A stretch of DNA of 64,000 nucleotides from Candidatus Bathyarchaeota archaeon (GCA_963828195.1 CAWHDT010000003.1:1-64000), one strand, 5' to 3'. Counted from the stretch's first letter, positions 36,366 through 43,823 are shown. Notes: generated from the sequence alone by a model not told the origin. A program made the numbers and translations.

Positions 36366-36536
36366 ACCCGCTTTTCTCTTTTTTTGGCAATTAGCTCACC
36401 CGAATGGTAGGCTCTGCCCAGAAGTGAGCAAATCTTACTGCACATTTTTGAAAAAATATGGAGTATTTGTTGGCTGTAATGATGGAACGCGGATTTTCTT
36501 GCTGGAAGGGCTTGAGAAAAAATGTTTGTTCATTAC

Positions 36537-36579
36537 TGTAGTCACCTCACCATTAAAATTTAAATCTGTGTAGTCACCT
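36537..36579 (+). promoter_or_regulatory. Direct repeat TGTAGTCACCT (x2) flanking the TATA-like box of the Fic gene
   Basis: Exact 11-mers at 36537 and 36569, 32 bp apart, around tttaaa. Confidence 0.6.
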
Positions 36580-36588
36580 AATATATTT

Positions 36589-37530
36589 GTGCACGTCGAA
36601 ATTAGAGAAAAGAATGGTTCACGTAAATACTATTTAGCGCACTCTTATAGAGTCGGAAAATTCGTAAAAAAAGTTAGAGTTTACCTCGGCACAAACTTAA
36701 CTCACGAGGAATTAAAACAAAAAAGAAAAATGGCTGAAGCCAAACTTAAAGAACGGATAAAGCAAGCCGAATCAATCCATGACCCCTATTTAACACCGCT
36801 TTCGTCCTCAGAATCAAAAGAGCTTGAAACTCTTGAAGCGCGAGGGGAATTACGAGTACCTCGTCTCTCAGAACTTGACTGGGACAAGTTCAAGGAAGCA
36901 TTTACCTATAATACAAACGCTATTGAAGGTTCACGGGTTAAATCTAATGAAGTTGCAGACATTCTTAGAAAGAGAAAATGGCCACCAAACGTAAGCAAAG
37001 AGGATATTGCGGAAACCTATGGAGTCGCTGAAGCAGTGGACTACATTCGTAAAACCAAAGAATGCGTTTCCTTGAGACTTATAAAACAACTTCACAAAAT
37101 AGTTTTTAAGAATTCAAAGCATTTTGCAGGGGAATTTAGAGAAAAAGGTGTGGAAGTAATAGTTGCTGACTCATATGGAAATGTTATTCACCGTGGAGCA
37201 CCATCGTGGCAAATTGAGGAACTGCTAAAAGATTTGGTTCGGTGGTATAATCGGAATAAGGAAATGTGTCCTTCGCTGGTTTTAGCCGCCGTTGTTCATA
37301 ATCAATTCGAAAACATTCATCCATTCCAAGATGGAAACGGCAGGGTTGGAAGATTGCTCCTTAACAATATCCTGTTAAAGCATGATCTTCCGCCTTTAAA
37401 CATTGAACTAAAAAATAGAGCGCAGTATTATGAGGCTTTACAAATCTATGAAAAAGACCACAACATACGTCCCACTATAGATTTAATGCTTAAAGAATAC
37501 AGGGCACTTAAGAAGATCTTACATAGGTGA
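36589..37530 (+). CDS. Fic-family protein with an N-terminal putative DNA-binding extension
   Basis: HPFQDGNGRVGR Fic motif; TNAIEG inhibitory motif; N-terminal KYYLAHSYR..RVYLG. Confidence 0.9.
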   Translation: MHVEIREKNGSRKYYLAHSYRVGKFVKKVRVYLGTNLTHEELKQKRKMAEAKLKERIKQAESIHDPYLTPLSSSESKELETLEARGELRVPRLSELDWDKFKEAFTYNTNAIEGSRVKSNEVADILRKRKWPPNVSKEDIAETYGVAEAVDYIRKTKECVSLRLIKQLHKIVFKNSKHFAGEFREKGVEVIVADSYGNVIHRGAPSWQIEELLKDLVRWYNRNKEMCPSLVLAAVVHNQFENIHPFQDGNGRVGRLLLNNILLKHDLPPLNIELKNRAQYYEALQIYEKDHNIRPTIDLMLKEYRALKKILHR

Positions 37531-37575
37531 CCACAAATTTCGCATGCGTAGTCACCTCTAATACGATTTGGTTTT

Positions 37576-37620
37576 TGGCGCGGGATGTTAGGTTTACACC
37601 CACGTTTAAATCCACACGAA
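37576..37620 (-). mobile_element. Degenerate tRNA-Ser 3'-end copy (att-like site A)
   Basis: tggcgcgggatgttaggtttacacccacgtttaaatccacacgaa; first 13 nt identical to the tRNA 3' end. Confidence 0.7.
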
Positions 37621-37750
37621 AAATTTAGGAAGAAAAACGCAATACGCTGTTGTTCTGAACTCAAAAAAGCTCAAAGAAGTTAAATAGAAAGAAAAAAAGA
37701 ATTTTGAATTCGTAGTTTCCCTTTGTCGTTGTCTAAAAGATGGGTGCGGT

Positions 37751-38188
37751 TTACCCGAATGTTACGTATTTTTTGGGCTCCATCATGTTAGCTCTGCTCC
37801 AGTGGTGAGCCTGGCATTTTGCTACCTTCATGATGACCAACTCGGGGCTTTCTGCCGTTATGCCCATTTGCTTGAGGAAGGGCCGCGCTTCTATCACTTT
37901 CCGCTTCATCTCCAGATCTTGCACAAACTCCACCTTGCCCGTGACCCGCACCATGTCTCCGCTTTTGCTTTTGTAGTCGAGGAAGCAGACTTCTACTTTG
38001 GGATTGGCTTTAAGCTGCTTATAGACATCTTTGCTCGCATCCATGCTGTAGTAGAGTCCGGTTTTGTCGGCGGAGAAAAGCTGCAGCGCACGCACTTTCG
38101 GCTGGTCGCCATCTAAGGTGGCGAAGAAGCTGATTGGGTTGTCGGTTACAAACTTGAGAATTTCGTTCAATTCCATAATTATCGCCAA
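37751..38188 (-). CDS. Pyridoxamine 5'-phosphate oxidase-like FMN-binding protein
   Basis: FFATLDGDQPKVR..KDVYKQLKANPKVEVCF. Confidence 0.85.
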   Translation of the reverse strand: MAIIMELNEILKFVTDNPISFFATLDGDQPKVRALQLFSADKTGLYYSMDASKDVYKQLKANPKVEVCFLDYKSKSGDMVRVTGKVEFVQDLEMKRKVIEARPFLKQMGITAESPELVIMKVAKCQAHHWSRANMMEPKKYVTFG

Positions 38189-38356
38189 GCAGTAAGAGTG
38201 GCGACGACGATTATAGGCTTTTCCTAAGCAGGCGAGCGGCGGTTTGGCAGTTTGTAGAGCCTCGCGAGACTTAACGCCGGTGTGGTTAGGATGAATTTGG
38301 ATTAACCCGAATTACCTTACTTGCTTTCTATATAGTAAGCGGCTCACAAATTAACG

Positions 38357-38411
38357 GAATTTGGAAATGGGCGGGATGTCAAATTTTGCATTCACTTTCA
38401 AATTTCACGCA
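38357..38411 (-). mobile_element. Degenerate tRNA-Ser 3'-end copy including the downstream flank (att-like site B)
   Basis: gaatttggaaatgg-gcgggatgt matches 41925-41948, followed by ttcactttcaaatttcacgc. Confidence 0.7.
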
Positions 38412-38570
38412 GGTAATAACCGTCTTTTTAAAAAGAATCAAGAGATGATAGGTTGCTGTCTTAAGCCAGCCACAAATGTTTATTTTTCGCTCCCTCTTTG
38501 AGAAATGGCGGAGTAAAAGTTATGTCATTAAATGTGAATGGGCAAAGAGTACACTCCCTGGAAGATTCCT

Positions 38571-39041
38571 ATGTCAGAACAAGCGGCATCTAAGGAAGAA
38601 GCCCTGAAAGAACCGGTGCGGCCTCATCAGCCGGGCCAGTCGACGTTCCGAGCGATCCTCGCCGAAGGCGTTGAGTGGAAACCGTTCGCGGCGTTTCCGC
38701 CGGAAGCACGCTTGGCGGTTCTGGTTGGCCGACCCTTGGAGCCCGGACCTTATACCATCAGGGTAAAGGTGCCTAACGGGGTGAAACTGATGCCTCACTG
38801 GCATCCTGAGGACCGCGTTTACACGGTCATTTCCGGGGTCTTCTACATCGGCTTAGGCGATAAATTCGACGCCGATAAGCTAGAGGCATATCCACCCGGC
38901 GCTGTAATTATTCTTCCCGGCAACACTTCCCACTTTCACTGGGCAAAGTCCGGCGAATACGTCACGCAGGTAACCGCCATAGGGCCACTCGGTCTGGAAT
39001 ATGTCGACTCGAAGGACGATCCGCGGAATGTTCCCCGTTAA
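38571..39041 (+). CDS. Cupin-domain protein (DUF4437-like)
   Basis: PHWHPEDRVYTVISG..PG..SHFHW; GC-richer than its neighbours. Confidence 0.85.
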   Translation: MSEQAASKEEALKEPVRPHQPGQSTFRAILAEGVEWKPFAAFPPEARLAVLVGRPLEPGPYTIRVKVPNGVKLMPHWHPEDRVYTVISGVFYIGLGDKFDADKLEAYPPGAVIILPGNTSHFHWAKSGEYVTQVTAIGPLGLEYVDSKDDPRNVPR

Positions 39042-39076
39042 TACGCGCGCTGGTTTGCCCTAAAAATCACTAATAT

Positions 39077-39508
39077 TTATGTTTGGGTTGGAGTTGCGCG
39101 TACCGCGTCTAATTTCTTCCTTCCGAAGACTAAAGCCCCTAAAAAGAGTAAGCCGAAACCTACAACGAAAGCTATGACAACGTTCGCACCTAACGAACCA
39201 CCAGAGCCTTCAGAAAAACCATAGCCACCAGAAAGAAGATCAAGAACTGACCCGAATACAAGAAAAGTTAGTCCTAAATAAGCCATAAACCTGCCAATCT
39301 TCATCTTCTCGGTGAGCATTATTGGTGTTTTTCTGCGTTTGAAGCCTGAGATACCAAAATAAGCCATAGACATTCCCATCGATGATACCACAGCGCCCAG
39401 AATTGGAATTGTGCTAATGAGAAAGACAAGATAGATACCGAATCCTAAAATAAGTAATCCAGCCAATCGGACAGCTAGATCTGAATTTCTTATTGGATTC
39501 ACAGACAT
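39077..39508 (-). CDS. Four-TM hypothetical membrane protein
   Basis: Four Gly-rich hydrophobic segments. Confidence 0.6.
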   Translation of the reverse strand: MSVNPIRNSDLAVRLAGLLILGFGIYLVFLISTIPILGAVVSSMGMSMAYFGISGFKRRKTPIMLTEKMKIGRFMAYLGLTFLVFGSVLDLLSGGYGFSEGSGGSLGANVVIAFVVGFGLLFLGALVFGRKKLDAVRATPTQT

Positions 39509-39769
39509 GTAATGGATCCTTTACTATTTCAATTCCTATGGCTTTATGTTTTTTCTCTATTAATATTTTAGGGACAAAGCGGCGCCCTAAACCCCTTTTA
39601 CAATTTAGGGCGTGAGTGGGGGATCCCATCACTAGTTCACGAGTAAAAGTATGCACTGAAGGGCGCGAAATAAGTGCTGTCCTTGAACGCATATAGACTA
39701 AACCTAAAGCGCTCATAGAATGGCTTGAGCGCTTAGCGGTTTAAGACTTCTCATACCGTCGTGTTAAAC

Positions 39770-40156
39770 TCAGGGCTTCATCAAGGTAACGTGAATAGGT
39801 TCTATTCTCAAAATGACCCTATCTCCGTGCTGTCTGTAATCCATGCCTATGTACTTATGCGCTAACTTATCGATATGTTCCTCAGCGCCTTCTTTTCTTA
39901 TCTCAACAACCTTGCCCCTAATGAAAAGCGAATCGTACGGGTCGTTCATGTTGAATACGCTTATCGCCACACGAGGATCCCGCCTAATATTCCTTGTCTT
40001 GACCCTGTTCTCAGTCGTATTAATCAGTACGACGTCGCCGTCGTGGTCTACCCAAGTGGTCGTTACGTGCGGGGAACCATCCCTCATCAATGTGCCTATG
40101 TTTGCGAAATTTTTTGCCTCAATCAATTGCTTCGCTTTTTCAGGAAGGTTTACCAT
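39770..40156 (-). CDS. PPOX-class (F420-dependent-like) oxidoreductase
   Basis: TLMRDGSPHVT..W, K.RNIRRDPRVA and IDKLAHKY motifs. Confidence 0.85.
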   Translation of the reverse strand: MVNLPEKAKQLIEAKNFANIGTLMRDGSPHVTTTWVDHDGDVVLINTTENRVKTRNIRRDPRVAISVFNMNDPYDSLFIRGKVVEIRKEGAEEHIDKLAHKYIGMDYRQHGDRVILRIEPIHVTLMKP

Positions 40157-40386
40157 GCAGCCACCATTTACTAAGACGGATGGAACGAAGATTAATAGTT
40201 TTCTTGGCAGCGCGTCGTGAAATGCCGTATGGCAAGTGGGGCGGGGGCGAACGCTGATTTGTGTGCAACTTAAACGCTGAATTAAATTGGATTGCCTAAA
40301 CGGTTGAAACGCAAATTAGAAGCCAACAACTCATGGTTCATTTTTAGAAATAAATGAATGTTAAGCCTTATTTGGCAAAAAGAGCT

Positions 40387-40439
40387 TGGCGCGGGATGTT
40401 GGATTTGAACCCACGCGGCCTTTCGACCACCTCAGACTT
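40387..40439 (-). mobile_element. Near-perfect tRNA-Ser 3'-half copy (attR-like site C)
   Basis: 44 nt match to 41936-41979 with one mismatch; similarity extends to the anticodon arm (agactt) after a 3-nt insertion. Confidence 0.85.
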
Positions 40440-40521
40440 TCTGACCTGTAGAATCGCGGGCATCTTTGTAACAATATTTTTTAATGTTTTTTGACAATTG
40501 TTAAATACGGCTCTATGATAT

Positions 40522-40749
40522 TTGGGTTTGATGGATATGACGTCTGAAGCAGAGTTGAAAGAGATTCGAAGTCTGCTTGTGGAACTGAACAAAAAAGTGC
40601 AAGGGCTCAATGAGTTGGTGGAAGAGAGGCTAATAGGCTGTGAGGTGCCCACCAAAGAGGATGTTGAAGCCATAAACGAGTATGAAGCTTCAAAGAAAAG
40701 CAAAAAACTCCACGTTGAGCCTCTAAGCGAACTATCAAAAGGGAATTAG
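40522..40749 (+). CDS. Putative antitoxin
   Basis: Small acidic protein (PTKEDVEAINEY) directly upstream of a RelE-like gene. Confidence 0.65.
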   Translation: MGLMDMTSEAELKEIRSLLVELNKKVQGLNELVEERLIGCEVPTKEDVEAINEYEASKKSKKLHVEPLSELSKGN

Positions 40750-40752
40750 CTG

Positions 40753-41019
40753 TTGCCTAAGCATCTGGTTTTTGTAGAAAGCAAAGCCAAAAAACAATTC
40801 AAGAAGTTGCCCAAAGAAAACCAAACAAGGGTTCTTGCAGCTCTGAAAACCTTGGAAGACGAAGGCTTTTCTGCAAGGTTAGACCTCAAGAAGCTGCAAG
40901 GGTATAGAAGCCATTACCGTATAAGAGCGGGCAGAATTATACGAATAAGGTTTGAGCTTTCGGCAGACGGAACAATTGTTGTTTACTCTATTTCAATGCG
41001 CGAAAATGCATACGAATAG
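40753..41019 (+). CDS. RelE/ParE family toxin
   Basis: KQFKKLP..LDLKKLQG..YRIRAG..R..Y. Confidence 0.8.
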   Translation: MPKHLVFVESKAKKQFKKLPKENQTRVLAALKTLEDEGFSARLDLKKLQGYRSHYRIRAGRIIRIRFELSADGTIVVYSISMRENAYE

Positions 41020-41085
41020 GCGCTGACAAAACCAAGGTTTTTAAGCAATTTCTTTCAGCAGACCGTAGTTGCAAGGAGGTTTAAG

Positions 41086-41131
41086 TGGCGCGGGATGTCA
41101 GTTTTACATTCACGTTTAAATTTCACGCGAA
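41086..41131 (-). mobile_element. Degenerate tRNA-Ser 3'-end copy (att-like site D)
   Basis: tggcgcgggatgtcagttttacattcacgtttaaatttcacgcga. Confidence 0.72.
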
Positions 41132-41226
41132 GCGCCGTGAATGCCGGAATAAGTGAATAAAGTATAAAACCAATATGTTCAAATCGCCAAAACTGTTAAG
41201 ATCCCATTTCGTATGGTTTGTTTGAT

Positions 41227-41688
41227 CTATTTGCTTAGTCCTAGCTGTTGCATGAATCCAACAAAGTCATAAAATAGTCTTTCTTCGACGATTTCGCCGT
41301 TCTTCCAGGTGGCTACGGTGCAGAATTCAAGCTTAGCTGTCTTTCCGGTTGGTTGGATGATCTTTCCGTCTGCGCTTTTCATGGGTCCTTTCATCGTTAC
41401 TGTCCAGTCGGCGACTGTGCATGTGTGGTCTCCATCTCCAAATGCGATCTTGTAGGGGTTATTGACTATTTTGTTGTCGAAAGTTTTGAAGAACTCTGTA
41501 GCTTCGACATCGTGGTTGTGCCTTCCTATCGTGGGAAGGGGTTGCGCTGGCCAGTAAACCTTAACGTCTTCTCTGTGACGTTTCTTAAACGTCTCCCAGA
41601 GGGGGCTGTTTGGACCTGCGTTCCAGGCGTCATCAAGGGTTTTCATCAACTCGAGATTTTCTTTTGATCCCATCTTGCATTCACCCAA
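41227..41688 (-). CDS. SnoaL-like ester cyclase / NTF2-fold protein
   Basis: DDAWN, FGDGD, PTGK and FCTVATWKNGEIVEERLFYD motifs. Confidence 0.85.
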   Translation of the reverse strand: MGECKMGSKENLELMKTLDDAWNAGPNSPLWETFKKRHREDVKVYWPAQPLPTIGRHNHDVEATEFFKTFDNKIVNNPYKIAFGDGDHTCTVADWTVTMKGPMKSADGKIIQPTGKTAKLEFCTVATWKNGEIVEERLFYDFVGFMQQLGLSK

Positions 41689-41874
41689 ATTATCCTGTTA
41701 AAAATCTCTGTGTCTAGATTCTGCATTGTTTCGCTTAAAAGCCTTGCGTGAGCTTCTCTGGTTGTTTAAAACGCGAATGTGTTCCAGTGCAATTGTCTTT
41801 CAGGAGCTTCTTCTTGAAGCGGGATTTATTCGCGTGTAATTTAAACGCTTGACCTGAGGAGGTAAATCTCAATT

Positions 41875-42354
41875 TCATGCGATAATTTGAGTATAATCAT
41901 TAAAAATAGGTTCAGAAATAGGCTGAATTTGGAAATGGCGCGGGATGTGGGATTTGAACCCACGCGGCCTTTCGACCACAGACTTAGCAGGCCTGCCCCC
42001 TACCAGGCTAGGGCAATCCCGCACGAAACTGTTTTGTTGTTCCAAGCCTGATTTAGACATATTAAGATGTTCAATTTGAACACCTAAGTGGTCGGTCTCA
42101 GCCATCTCAGTATGAGGTAATTTAATTAAAGTTTTCTGAACATTTAAACCACAGCCTTTGCTTAGCTGCAGTTCTGCGTATTCCTTAGACTGTTGATGAT
42201 AGAAGAATTTGCTTTTACCATACTCAGCTTTGCCTGCATAATGCCTAACTCTGTAGTAGTTGCCTAATTGCTGAAGATAACCTTCTCGCTTACATACTTC
42301 ACATATTATTCTCATTTTATCACATTCTAGGTTTTGGTCTTCTGGGGTGGTCAA
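41875..42354 (-). CDS. Hypothetical CxxC protein whose frame reads through the tRNA gene
   Basis: MRIICEVCKREGYLQQLGNYYRVRHY..FFYHQQ; the 3' third overlaps tRNA-Ser and may not be functional. Confidence 0.45.
   Translation of the reverse strand: MTTPEDQNLECDKMRIICEVCKREGYLQQLGNYYRVRHYAGKAEYGKSKFFYHQQSKEYAELQLSKGCGLNVQKTLIKLPHTEMAETDHLGVQIEHLNMSKSGLEQQNSFVRDCPSLVGGRPAKSVVERPRGFKSHIPRHFQIQPISEPIFNDYTQIIA
41936..42022 (-). tRNA. tRNA-Ser(GCT), intronless, CCA encoded
   Basis: GCGGGAT/ATCCCGC acceptor stem, CAGGC-CTGCTAA-GTCTG anticodon arm, long variable arm GGTCGAAAGGCC, GTTCAAATC T-loop, G73 followed by CCA. Confidence 0.95.
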
Positions 42355-42437
42355 CTTTGGATATAAAGACCATTAAAACAAAAATAGGGAGCGTTAAGCA
42401 AAGATATTATATTCAAAATAAACTATGAAGCATTGTT

Positions 42438-42779
42438 GTGGGAGCAATGTTAAGAGACATTAAACTAATGCTTGTGGCTAATGCATTCTTAAGTTTGCTT
42501 TTTGTTTATACTAACTACTTCATTTGGGCAGGTTTCAACATAAGCCCCAAAGGCTACATTAATTTATTAACCTATGGACCTGGCATAATTGGTTATCACT
42601 TATATTTTCTTGTCAATGGTCAGATGGAAGGTTTTAATGGAGCATATTTTGTTACGTTTAACTTTCCTTTCTGGCTCTTCTTTCTGGCAATAGCAGTAAA
42701 CATGTACTTCATCTTTAGACTCCAAAGAAGCATCGAAGGAAAACAGCATTCTGAGTGGGGAGCCCCTCTGCCACCTTGA
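42438..42779 (+). CDS. Small two-TM membrane protein, paralog of 16849..17181
   Basis: Shared NF...LF.LAI.VN.YFI.RLQR motif. Confidence 0.7.
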   Translation: MGAMLRDIKLMLVANAFLSLLFVYTNYFIWAGFNISPKGYINLLTYGPGIIGYHLYFLVNGQMEGFNGAYFVTFNFPFWLFFLAIAVNMYFIFRLQRSIEGKQHSEWGAPLPP

Positions 42780-43385: not shown

Positions 43386-43823
43386 ATGGTTGGAAAGTTA
43401 TCAAAAGCGGATGTAGCCTTCATGCAGAAATTGCCAGTGTGCAGAATGGCAACGGCAACCGAAGAGTGTGAGCCAATTGTGAGGCCTGTTTGGCCCGTAT
43501 TTGACGGCGTACATATCTATATTGCGACTGACCCTGACACACCCAAGCTGGAACACATAGAAGCAAACCCTGAGGTGTCACTGGTGTTTGATGATTACGA
43601 CCGAAACAACTGGTCAAACATCAAGGGCGTCCGCGTGCAGGGAGAAGCGACAGTTATATTGAAAGGCAAAGAATACCGTTACGCACATGATCTTCTCAAG
43701 GAAAAGTACCCTGAGTACCAAACAGAGGAAGGCAGCTGGAAAGAAGGCGACATACCAATAATCAAGGTACTGCCGACATCTTTCACGACGTGGGCACAAG
43801 GCGAATGGAAAAAGCAGCCTTAA
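43386..43823 (+). CDS. Pyridoxamine 5'-phosphate oxidase family protein
   Basis: RMATA..P.VRPVW, K..HIEANPEVSLVFD and KYPEY motifs. Confidence 0.85.
   Translation: MVGKLSKADVAFMQKLPVCRMATATEECEPIVRPVWPVFDGVHIYIATDPDTPKLEHIEANPEVSLVFDDYDRNNWSNIKGVRVQGEATVILKGKEYRYAHDLLKEKYPEYQTEEGSWKEGDIPIIKVLPTSFTTWAQGEWKKQP

Follow-up and report, generated by a model that had tools for sequence, protein, structure and literature searches.

The array downstream of tRNA-Ser(GCT) in the window analysed here (the whole 64-kb stretch of DNA) can be explained, in a reading that we favour with modest confidence, as a set of non-autonomous, att-bounded mini-elements accreted at tRNA genes by site-specific recombination. 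A wider proposal, which we put forward only as a tentative possibility, is that of an Archaea-native form of cassette capture, in which 0.7-3-kb cassettes would use class II Ser and Leu tRNAs as landing sites and be moved in trans by co-resident zinc-ribbon integrases. If true, each cassette of the pool would carry a composite attachment site of about 160-200 nt (inverted motif, tRNA core, motif); the arrays would hold accessory redox, efflux and regulatory genes as an exchangeable stock throughout this soil and peat Bathyarchaeia genus; and the system would be a functional analogue of integrons, of independent origin.

The only tRNA gene that ARAGORN detected in the window is an intact tRNA-Ser(GCT) (41936-42022, minus strand; ARAGORN and sequence); a 13-nt core has its proximal copy in the 3' end of this gene, with the CCA. 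The four co-oriented copies of this 3' end reported downstream of the gene in the initial annotation were confirmed by exact repeats and by a profile search, as was the continuation of copies A, B and D into a common non-tRNA motif of about 30 nt. The core GGCGCGGGATGT occurs four times on the plus strand (37577, 40388, 41087 and 41937; chance expectation 0.13; four attained in none of 100 shuffles), and copy B (38368), seen in the sequence and by the profile, has a 1-nt deletion (TGG-GCGGGATGT). The motif CACGTTTAAATTTCACGC is exact in site D (41111), has two mismatches in site B (38393) and recurs as an inverted copy at 41832-41849 (expectation 0.12; three attained in none of 100 shuffles), while the variant in site A, CACGTTTAAATCCACACG, is one base shorter than the genus consensus.

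The outermost site, A (37574-37623, plus strand; nhmmer E 1.2e-11, repeats and alignment), has its core TGGCGCGGGATGT at 37576-37588, followed by the A-type right-arm motif TAGGTTTACACCCACGTTTAAA-TCCACACGAAAA. Site B (38366-38415, plus strand; nhmmer E 7.9e-10) combines the 1-nt-deleted core with a degenerate D-type motif, and site D (41084-41132, plus strand; nhmmer E 3.5e-14) joins a core at 41086-41098 to the D-type motif CACGTTTAAATTTCACGCGAA. Site C (40387-40437, plus strand; direct repeat and sequence) is a different att type from A, B and D. It is a displaced tRNA-Ser 3' half of about 50 nt that lacks the motif and shows 98% identity to the tRNA across 44 nt (40387-40430); the toxin-antitoxin module beside it is likewise set apart from the main type. 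Module 3, from site C to site D, is probably a separate case, the leftover of an element using longer tRNA homology. The units of the window are bounded by direct repeats of the tRNA 3' end, and the tRNA gene is left intact.

Pfam confirmed the gene content assigned to the modules. Cassette 1 carries a PNPOx-like flavoprotein (37751-38188, minus strand); cassette 2 a cupin (38538-39041, plus), a 143-aa ORF without Pfam family (39077-39508, minus) and a PNPOx protein (39770-40156, minus); module 3 two small genes of 75 and 88 aa (40522-41019, plus); and cassette 4 a SnoaL-like protein (41227-41688, minus). The name RelE toxin-antitoxin pair given to the two small genes is plausible but weakly supported, the second product having a weak Gp49/HigB-like match (E 0.0026, below the curated cut-off) and an NCBIfam search of the pair returning no match. 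Cassette 1 is common to the relative G016, in which the next cassette differs by alignment; orthologues of the SnoaL-like protein in relatives (86-90% aa identity) occupy other contexts, and no site was found near them. The chromosomal flank past the outermost site holds a Fic-domain gene (36589-37530, plus; Pfam), and outermost sites in relatives also have Fic-family neighbours. The 5' side of the tRNA is occupied by a PNPOx-like gene (43386-43823, plus; Pfam), a flank conserved in the genus (family F2/fam0 adjoins tRNA-Ser); together, Fic, PNPOx, methyltransferase, YhfC and DUF996 genes make up the array flanks. Gene orientation is mixed, both in the window and in the arrays of relatives. 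The 64-kb window contains no tyrosine recombinase and no match to PF00589 or PF00239, in agreement with the reported lack of an integrase; the genome has five PF00589 matches, all outside the window (nearest C3:219797), and no serine recombinase match anywhere.

A site of the main type is half of a composite junction of about 160-200 nt, which comprises a left arm of about 35-130 nt with the motif (TTCGCGTGnAATTTAAACG) in inverted form at its start, the 13-nt core identical to the tRNA 3' end, and the right-arm motif, of consensus TAGGTTTACA-YY-CACGTTTAAATTYCACRCGA. A complete junction has its two motif copies in opposite orientation on either side of the core, at 12 nt and 35-130 nt from it and non-terminal, and at the tRNA itself the right half is replaced by the tRNA body. 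The left arms fall into the compact non-coding families P1, P2 and P3, whose members have a fixed length and carry the motif in inverted form. The P1-type arm of cassette 4 (41829-41935, plus strand; 95% inverted repeat, P1 family) opens with an inverted motif copy (41829-41849), continues for about 87 nt to gaatttggaaa, and provides the CCA and the trailer of tRNA-Ser. The P2-type arm of cassette 2 (40257-40386, plus; direct repeat, P2 family) runs from an inverted copy at 40257-40278 to ttatttggcaaaaagag, and the left arm of cassette 1 retains a degenerate inverted copy (38262-38278, plus; seen in the sequence and conserved in G016). A 64-nt segment that alignment shows to be missing from G016 (38302-38365, plus), flanked by the direct repeats GAATTTGGA (38293-38301 and 38357-38365), looks like the terminal part of a P1 arm, probably left behind by a cassette since lost.

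The left and right halves of the junctions assort independently: P1 and P2 arms are each found with both A-type and D-type motifs, motif similarity is 13.4/19 within junctions versus 13.3 for all pairs, and no junction-level co-variation between the two motif copies was found. The left motif copy is missing in about half of 81 junction contexts. In single-strand folding, junction B gave no signal (z -0.42); the motif copies pair in four of the five complete junctions of relatives that were folded, out of 17, with z -1.9 to -4.2 against plain shuffles. We suggest that the motif may be a recombinase-binding arm.

That sites A, B and D form one sequence family holds genus-wide: a profile of the site, run on 101 genomes from this Bathyarchaeia genus, matched 52 of them, the matches adjoining tRNA-Ser(GCT) and tRNA-Leu genes and each core fitting the neighbouring tRNA. 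The genome of the window has seven such sites, at tRNA-Ser(GCT), tRNA-Leu(GAG), an intron-containing Leu-like tRNA on C6 and, for one, near the RNase P RNA; their cores match the last 10-13 nt of the adjacent tRNA. The sites are restricted to tRNA-adjacent arrays and not scattered. The motif pattern alone matched 40 of the 101 genomes (reversed-pattern control, 0). Among the 31 records with exact motif matches in a sample of one genome per species (185,579 species), 29 are titled Bathyarchaeota or Bathyarchaeia, and the remaining two, short contigs of 6.4 and 2.4 kb, bear the titles of bacterial MAGs.

The small, integrase-free, site-bounded modules that had been proposed from the window were borne out in relatives, with cargo that varies among species. 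We delimited 36 modules in 17 genomes (22 of the 27 loci scanned), with a median length of 1.9 kb (≤3.5 kb in 29/36) and a cargo of 94 ORFs from 69 Pfam families, including ABC transporters, PNPOx, ADH, wHTH and ArsB. Winged-helix regulators are common cargo (DUF7347 in 3/94 ORFs) and also lie beside the sites on C1 and C6. One module of the 36 encodes an integrase and the other 35 bear no trace of one; apart from that one, searches with seven integrase queries gave no match in the site loci, nor any in 47 metagenome loci.

Several lines of evidence bear on whether these modules are exchanged. First, across five species with an orthologous flank, the site is on average 90% identical, more than the coding flank (82%), the spacer (46%) or the DNA behind the site (41%). 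Unrelated DNA behind a conserved outermost site indicates cassette turnover; an outermost cassette that differs behind a shared chromosomal flank requires recombination at the outermost site, not decay alone. Second, single cassettes recur as units in different company: an ADH cassette, 94.7% identical over 2 kb between G107 and G001, is followed by different cassettes; the PPOX1 cassette is kept in G000 and G016 with differing neighbours; and a DUF2807 cassette adjoins the tRNA in G058 and lies between two sites in G031. Third, the initial annotation had named, as arguments against its own reading, a fixed gene order in relatives, a motif never found with different cargo, and modules existing only as deletion remnants; we found an order that is not kept, many cargoes, and no integrase remnant in most modules.

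According to a rival explanation, which we judge rather unlikely, the array is a fossil, made of immobile deletion remnants of integrase-bearing elements serially integrated at the tRNA, the motif being their conserved arm. In the available parts of two reports, tandem integration with subsequent loss of the integrase gene is the standard account of archaeal integrated elements (PMC8371274, PMC6563490). In relatives, three sites lie next to integrase 3' fragments (47-63 nt away in G100:C21 and G094:C85), so that some modules are deletion products of larger elements, and an integrase pseudogene abuts tRNA-Ser in G002. Moreover, 4/52 motif-bearing genomes (G012, G090, G110 and G070) have arrays and no detected member of the broad integrase family (E ≤ 1e-15), and the interspecies divergence of cassettes about equals that of the flanking genes and so gives no sign of recent transfer. 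However, a decaying relic should not exceed coding sequence in conservation, as the site does; nearly all modules are free of integrase traces; the P1, P2 and P3 arms, compact, of fixed length and with their inverted motif, do not look like random deletion end points; and the variation of the outermost cassette behind a shared flank needs recombination there.

Autonomous relatives with the same motif exist, the one clear example being G089: within 2.8 kb it has a tRNA-Leu(TAG), a 436-aa integrase, two ORFs and a motif-bearing site (E 7e-11). This integrase is a zinc-ribbon tyrosine integrase with an N-terminal zinc-binding domain, and members of its family adjoin a tRNA 3' end at 21 of 30 loci; a search of 1.5-kb flanks, beyond which the distal ends mostly lie, detected no site at 28 of these loci. 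The genome of the window has a member 33% identical to it (C3:219647-220942). In G100:C22, a 22-kb integrase element has a plain repeat of the tRNA 3' end as its boundary, and motif-bounded modules follow. The recombinase expected to co-vary with the motif did not emerge from the 101 genomes (motif and integrase subfamily, 36; motif only, 16; integrase only, 32; neither, 17), and many genomes carrying integrases closely related to that of G089 lack sites altogether. The cassettes are probably recombined by a member of the large family of tRNA-targeting zinc-ribbon tyrosine integrases that abounds in this genus.

In the mechanism that we propose, cassettes may move as circles and in trans. A circle would present the left arm with its inverted motif, then the 13-nt core, then the right arm; a crossover inside the core would place the cassette beside the tRNA, rebuild the tRNA 3' end from the left arm of the cassette and displace older cassettes outward. 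Each resulting junction would resemble a reconstituted attachment site, and the integrase would be supplied in trans by an autonomous element, either resident or visiting. The short assembled contigs searched contained no excised circle, empty junction or excision joint.

A quite doubtful alternative is that the motif is a host element, either a promoter (BRE/TATA-like, GTGnAA-TTTAAAC) or an operator, in a tRNA-linked island turning over by homologous recombination between junctions. The motif has TTTAAA after a purine-rich stretch, which we take to fit the archaeal promoter consensus; the frequency of winged-helix regulators among the cargo also speaks for this alternative, and junctions of 160-200 nt could act as portable homology. 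But the core changes according to the neighbouring tRNA (Ser or one of two Leu types) and the motif does not, which is the hallmark of recombination with the tRNA gene; the 19-nt motif occurs almost exclusively in junctions (4 matches at ≤2 mismatches in the 2.83 Mb of the genome); the favoured promoter direction leaves the cassette, crossing the core; and cargo lies in both orientations at variable distances. That the junction itself is a miniature inverted-repeat element inserting between genes, and not a cassette boundary, is highly improbable, for the inverted copies that flank the core and pair in most folded junctions are offset by the frequent lack of the left copy, the substitution of the tRNA body for the right half, the confinement to tRNA-adjacent arrays and the independent assortment of the halves. 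A casposon or MITE-type transposon was rejected, the inverted copies not being terminal and the Cas1 genes (C3:404718, C9:87786 and C5:11) not lying near arrays, as was a split tRNA 3' half, given the intact tRNA-Ser next to it and A-type versus D-type variants that alter, by alignment, one side only of the would-be T stem.

Integrons likewise are arrays of short modules with one to a few accessory genes, ending in a conserved recombination-type site, and as here the cargo differs among relatives and the modules lack a recombinase. Their intI-type platform gene, with attI and a promoter, adjoins the array, whereas here there is none and the array is anchored at the 3' end of a tRNA; the attC at each cassette end, an imperfect inverted repeat forming a single-strand hairpin, measures 57-141 nt, against a site of about 160-200 nt with a tRNA-derived core; and their cassettes are mostly promoterless and co-oriented, whereas genes here lie in both orientations. 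The term integron-like does not hold, because there is no platform integrase and orientation is mixed; beyond the inverted repeat itself, the folding results on an attC-type hairpin are mixed.

CIMEs, known from streptococcal ICEs and IMEs, are integrase-less bacterial elements bounded by the att sites of a related autonomous element; they are regarded as derived from conjugative elements by deletion, and a neighbour's integrase has been proposed to mobilize them. Like our units, they share a single tRNA-type target with other elements arranged in tandem and are devoid of recombination genes, and an autonomous element with the same att type is found here in one clear case, G089. In contrast to CIMEs, the array has an archaeal host, 0.7-3-kb units, dedicated non-coding arms, a large family with many cargoes and no conjugation context. 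IMEX, which exploit host Xer recombinases encoded elsewhere, also stack in tandem without an integrase at one chromosomal site; their target is dif, whereas ours is a tRNA end and the host Xer enzyme has no evidential link to the sites.

In Prochlorococcus, as far as the available part of a preprint describes them, tycheposon islands are variable and adjoin tRNA genes as here, with elements side by side, partial tRNA copies between them, newer elements pushing older ones inward, and degenerate remnants (bioRxiv 10.1101/2020.12.28.424599). Tycheposons have their own integrase and replication modules (10-20 kb), and that part reports no shared arm motif in the integrase-free material of the islands, so that small integrase-free units themselves carrying a conserved composite site would set the present array apart. 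Archaeal tRNA-integrating elements with tyrosine integrases share the tRNA 3'-end target, the core duplication and the tandem integration, but they are defined by an integrase of their own in each unit, which the modules of the window lack; the smallest cryptic element reported for Thaumarchaeota is 2.6 kb long and still encodes one (PMC6563490). In the relative G072, the att core of one array member overlaps the start of its own integrase gene, which recalls the SSV-type arrangement, described in the accessible parts of two reports, of an att site inside the integrase gene (PMC7253208, PMC8371274).

The window holds a single tRNA gene, that of tRNA-Ser(GCT) (41936-42022, minus strand), identified by a tRNA search; its 3' end reads TGGCGCGGGATGT... 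on the plus strand, with CCA encoded. The word GGCGCGGGATGT occurs four times in one orientation (37577, 40388, 41087 and 41937), where 0.13 occurrences are expected and a count of four was reached in none of 100 shuffles, and a fifth copy of this core, one base short, lies at 38368. Apart from the gene itself, these copies mark four sites, A (37576, the outermost), B (38368), C (40387) and D (41086). Downstream of the core, the motif CACGTTTAAATTTCACGC is exact at D, has two mismatches at B and occurs as a variant at A, and an inverted copy was found at 41832-41849 by sequence and motif search. Copy C is 98% identical to the tRNA over 44 nt, extends to about 50 nt and is devoid of the motif. 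The initial annotation had divided the region into intervals carrying a PNPOx gene (PPOX1), a cupin gene with an ORF and a second PNPOx gene (PPOX2), a two-gene pair and a SnoaL gene, and had reported no integrase; Pfam agrees with this gene content, and tyrosine and serine recombinases are both absent from the window. As for the toxin-antitoxin nature that it had assigned to the two-gene pair, a Gp49 match is present but below threshold, and NCBIfam returned none.

Aligning 65 distinct sites from the genome of the window and its relatives gave the consensus ATGGCGCGGGATGTTAGGTTTACACCCACGTTTAAATTTCACnCGAAAAA, with a mean column identity of 81%. Nucleotides 1-13 of the site are the tRNA end; the following ~16 nt resemble a decayed T arm, with 10 of the 16 nt equal to the tRNA in sequence, and the remainder is not tRNA-like. 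The main variants of the motif are the A-type (ACACCCACG...AAATTCCACACG) and the D-type (ACATTCACG...AAATTTCACGCG), with intermediates. Sorting 81 non-redundant contexts left of the core yielded the left-arm families P1 (about 107 nt, terminating in gaatttggaaaTGG), P2 (about 130 nt, terminating in ctatttggcaaaagga, mostly without CCA) and a third type, P3. Sequence comparison placed in the window a P1 arm (41829-41935) preceding tRNA-Ser itself, a P2 arm (40257-40386) preceding site C and a degenerate left arm preceding site B; the left arm of the PPOX1 cassette is shorter, with a copy of the motif about 35 nt from the core in a relative, G016. Each left arm opens with the motif in inverted form (TTCGCGTGnAATTTAAACG), and a full junction runs from this inverted motif through a spacer and the tRNA core to the motif proper, which lies 12 nt beyond the core. 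This layout is the product expected from the serial integration of circles (left arm, core, right arm) into a tRNA end.

A profile search of the genome of the window (2.83 Mb, 9 contigs) detected seven copies of the site at E <= 1.2e-8, namely A, B and D, two near tRNA-Leu(GAG) on contig C1, one on C6 located 0.6-1 kb downstream of an intron-containing Leu-like tRNA, and one on C5 in the vicinity of the RNase P RNA gene. The cores at the Leu loci are not Ser-like; they equal the last 10-13 nt of the adjacent tRNA. Within the genus, a strict 30-nt pattern was found in 40 of 101 genomes (reversed control, 0) and the profile model R1 matched 52 of the 101, with 1-10 matches each. The motif is also present in 47 metagenome loci; viral contigs gave no exact match to it, and a DNA search with the region in twelve genomes from other genera of the same order returned only the tRNA. 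All genomes compared are metagenome assemblies; the arrays recur in single-contig genomes (G003), and therefore they are not assembly artefacts.

Taking as a module any stretch bounded by two co-oriented sites, or by one site and a tRNA-Ser or tRNA-Leu gene, we collected 36 modules from 22 of 27 scanned loci (17 genomes). Their median size is 1.9 kb (range 0.7-11.3 kb; <=3.5 kb in 29 of the 36), and their genes lie in both orientations. Mechanical calling of ORFs of at least 90 aa produced 94 ORFs, which fall into 69 Pfam families at E <= 1e-5. The most frequent families are ABC transporter ATPases, PNPOx, zinc alcohol dehydrogenases (ADH), DUF7347 winged-helix proteins and FMN reductases, while cargo seen only once includes ArsB, MtrH, a peroxidase, a pirin and a sugar kinase. 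The gene order at tRNA-Ser(GCT) is different in every relative examined.

With moderate confidence, we propose that these modules are non-autonomous, att-bounded cassettes accreted at the tRNA end and recombined by a tyrosine integrase of a resident family. Such an integrase would recombine the attachment site of a cassette, whose core equals the tRNA end, either with another junction or with the tRNA gene itself. An insertion beside the tRNA would shift older units outward, and recombination between any two junctions would delete or swap units. Probably the motif copies of the two arms are bound by the zinc-ribbon domain of the integrase or by an accessory protein. Site C and the small two-gene module probably represent an element type using longer tRNA homology.

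The following observations bear on this proposal. First, in five species the outermost site adjoins the 3' end of one and the same chromosomal gene. Mean pairwise identity there is highest over the 50-nt site (90%); it is 82% for the coding flank but falls to 46% over the 22-nt spacer and to 41% over the 78 nt that lie behind the site. From this contrast, we infer that the site was kept and the DNA behind it exchanged since these five species split; the motif at this orthologous flank is D-type in one of the five and A-type in the others. Second, G107 and G001 share an ADH cassette with 94.7% identity over 2.0 kb (arms included), and what comes after it differs: a D-type junction with a DUF4331 gene in one genome, an A-type junction with different genes in the second. 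Third, the PPOX1 cassette of the window is common to G016 (coding part about 92% identical by eye), where the next cassette differs; the window also has an extra 64-nt piece at the PPOX1 junction, edged by GAATTTGGA repeats. Fourth, a DUF2807 cassette (91% identical) adjoins the tRNA in G058 and stands between two sites in G031. Fifth, the left-arm and right-arm types found at one junction assort independently.

The alternative that survives best, possible and in our opinion rather unlikely, is that the modules are inert remnants. Recent transfer is unsupported, the identity of the cassettes being about that of the flanks, and the SnoaL and PPOX2 orthologues of relatives stand in other contexts, in genomes too rearranged for the direction of movement to be read. 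Among the assembled contigs of four runs compared with 36500-42600, several span sites B, C and D unchanged, and the only joint connects 38702 to 38916, inside the cupin gene, with a short side of 27 letters; that no cassette-sized joint was seen among these contigs has no bearing either way on excision. Even for modules that are no more than fossils, one would have to explain why the site is so unusually well conserved. A host signal combined with homologous exchange appears improbable; the 19-nt motif is rare away from junctions, with four matches in the genome of the window at <=2 mismatches. A miniature inverted-repeat element is the least credible reading, and a very improbable one. As for a casposon or MITE-type transposon, the inverted motif copies do not lie at the termini, and Cas1 is absent from the surroundings of the arrays.

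Regarding the recombinase that our cassette proposal calls for, tyrosine integrases of about 400-440 aa are abundant in the genus (each of two queries retrieved the family from 85 of 101 genomes), the searches being confined to known families. Three arrangements link this family to the loci, one in G089, one in G100 and G094, and one in G072. In the relative G089, an autonomous element of 2.8 kb in all consists of tRNA-Leu(TAG), a convergent 436-aa integrase, two ORFs and a site with the motif. Proteins of this type have a zinc-binding domain at the N terminus and a catalytic domain like that of Xer, and 21 of the 30 best matches to the G089 integrase abut the 3' end of a tRNA (Leu(TAG), 13; Leu(CAG), 5; Cys, Pro and Arg, 1 each). 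The genome of the window encodes a zinc-binding integrase at C3:219647-220942, 33% identical to the G089 enzyme; a weak site-like match beside it proved on inspection not to be a site. G100:C22 carries a 22-kb integrase element at tRNA-Leu(TAG), which ends in a plain tRNA 3' repeat and is followed by motif-bounded modules. In G100:C21 and G094:C85, 3' fragments of integrases stop 47-63 nt before a Leu-type site that has a third variant of the motif (GATCTAAACnCACGTCTAAATTTAACGCG).

The initial annotation had suggested looking for a tyrosine recombinase that co-varies with the motif. Queries with the C3, G072 and G089 integrases across the 101 genomes revealed no such association: the motif and a G089-type integrase occur together in 36 genomes, the motif only in 16, the integrase only in 32 and neither in 17, and four motif-bearing genomes have no integrase family member at E <= 1e-15. 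In tblastn with five, then seven, integrases, matches were confined to G072, G002 (a pseudogene), G016:C6 (where the integrase is 8 kb away from a site and has no adjacent core) and G076 (weak, and outside an array); the other site loci and the 47 metagenome loci gave none. In G072, tRNA-Ser(GCT) and a 24-nt repeat of its end bound a 7.2-kb element that carries an AbiV-like gene and encodes a 295-aa integrase (L102 2131-3018) and an HNH nuclease; the repeat overlaps the start codon of the integrase, and an ADH cassette and then a normal site follow. In the excised form, the first 18 integrase codons would fall at the other end of the element, beside the tRNA; this integrase is an SSV-like split gene with a very short N part.

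The overlap in G072 prompted us to consider the motif as a coding remnant of an integrase 5' end. A reading frame could be set in 59 of the 81 contexts, and the open frames behind the motif reach 103 aa in a single case and no more than 74 aa elsewhere; since the sequences diverge right after the motif and the frames are short, no gene starts with the motif. An RNA helix or a split tRNA half was also rejected, the changes between variants being one-sided. The two motif copies gave no signal of co-variation (mean similarity 14.2 of 19 for 17 pairs within cassettes, 13.4 for 15 pairs within junctions and 13.3 over all pairs), and junction B gave no single-strand fold signal; the copies pair in four of five folded complete junctions of relatives, which merely restates the inverted repeats. 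As for the integron-like character initially put forward, the arrays fall outside integrons when tested for membership.

Elements that are att-bounded and integrase-less are known as CIMEs, a bacterial concept. Tandem integration at tRNA genes and integrase loss are already known in archaea, according to PMC6563490 and PMC8371274. The cryptic elements of PMC6563490 are, unlike our modules, defined there by having an integrase, the smallest one mentioned being 2.6 kb, and a preprint on Prochlorococcus describes tRNA-anchored islands with partial tRNA copies and remnants (bioRxiv 10.1101/2020.12.28.424599). Within the part of the literature on tRNA-integrated elements and integron cassettes that was covered, such cassettes are undescribed in Bathyarchaeia or other archaea, and the searched literature describes no plasmids or cassette systems of Bathyarchaeia; the supplementary tables of PMC6563490 and of the Prochlorococcus (tycheposon) preprint may hold integrase-less elements bearing on novelty. 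Little is understood of how genes flow among uncultured soil archaea, and movement in trans, if true, would show the shuffling of one-gene accessory-metabolism units (flavoproteins, efflux pumps, arsenic export, regulators) across a large genus of archaea. The ~50-nt site now defined and the candidate integrase family are both open to in vitro tests, and could provide tools for inserting DNA at tRNA genes in archaea.

Several minor features accompany these loci. On C1, a site and a ~50-nt 3' half of tRNA-Leu(GAG) (L001 15049-15102 and 16227-16281; C1:289049-289099 and C1:290226-290280) are inverted relative to the true tRNA-Leu(GAG), 12-13 kb off, and enclose housekeeping genes (ArgRS, deoxyhypusine synthase), with a second deoxyhypusine synthase paralogue just outside; this arrangement looks like an inversion between att sites. 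In G010, one site (L021 6158-6205) has the orientation opposite to that expected from its tRNA-Ser, and a DUF4386 cassette separates the two, which suggests an inversion between sites. The tRNA on C6 (L002 3780-3895; C6:39779-39895) is a class II, intron-containing Rfam tRNA of 116 nt with a Leu-like sequence, which ARAGORN calls Met(cat) if introns are allowed, and the core of the downstream site matches it. The C5 site (L003 9955-9990; C5:141454-141489) has the archaeal RNase P RNA gene (L003 10087-10391, minus strand) as a neighbour, the 3' end of which is ~100 nt away; the core of this site is identical to the tRNA-Leu(GAG) end plus CCA, its motif ends early, after TTTAAAT, and ARAGORN finds no tRNA-Leu on this contig. 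In the window, three PNPOx-family paralogues occur within 6 kb, one (43386-43823) belonging to the conserved flank 5' of the tRNA and the others (37751-38188 and 39770-40156) carried by cassettes. A 159-aa ORF without Pfam match (41875-42354, minus strand) spans the entire tRNA-Ser gene and is probably not a gene over that stretch. Finally, a short TGTGTAGTCACCT-like repeat is found on both sides of the Fic gene (36535-36547, 36567-36579 and 37545-37557), and in G010 and G109 the word GTAGTCAC also occurs in the stretch that separates the outermost site from the flank gene.
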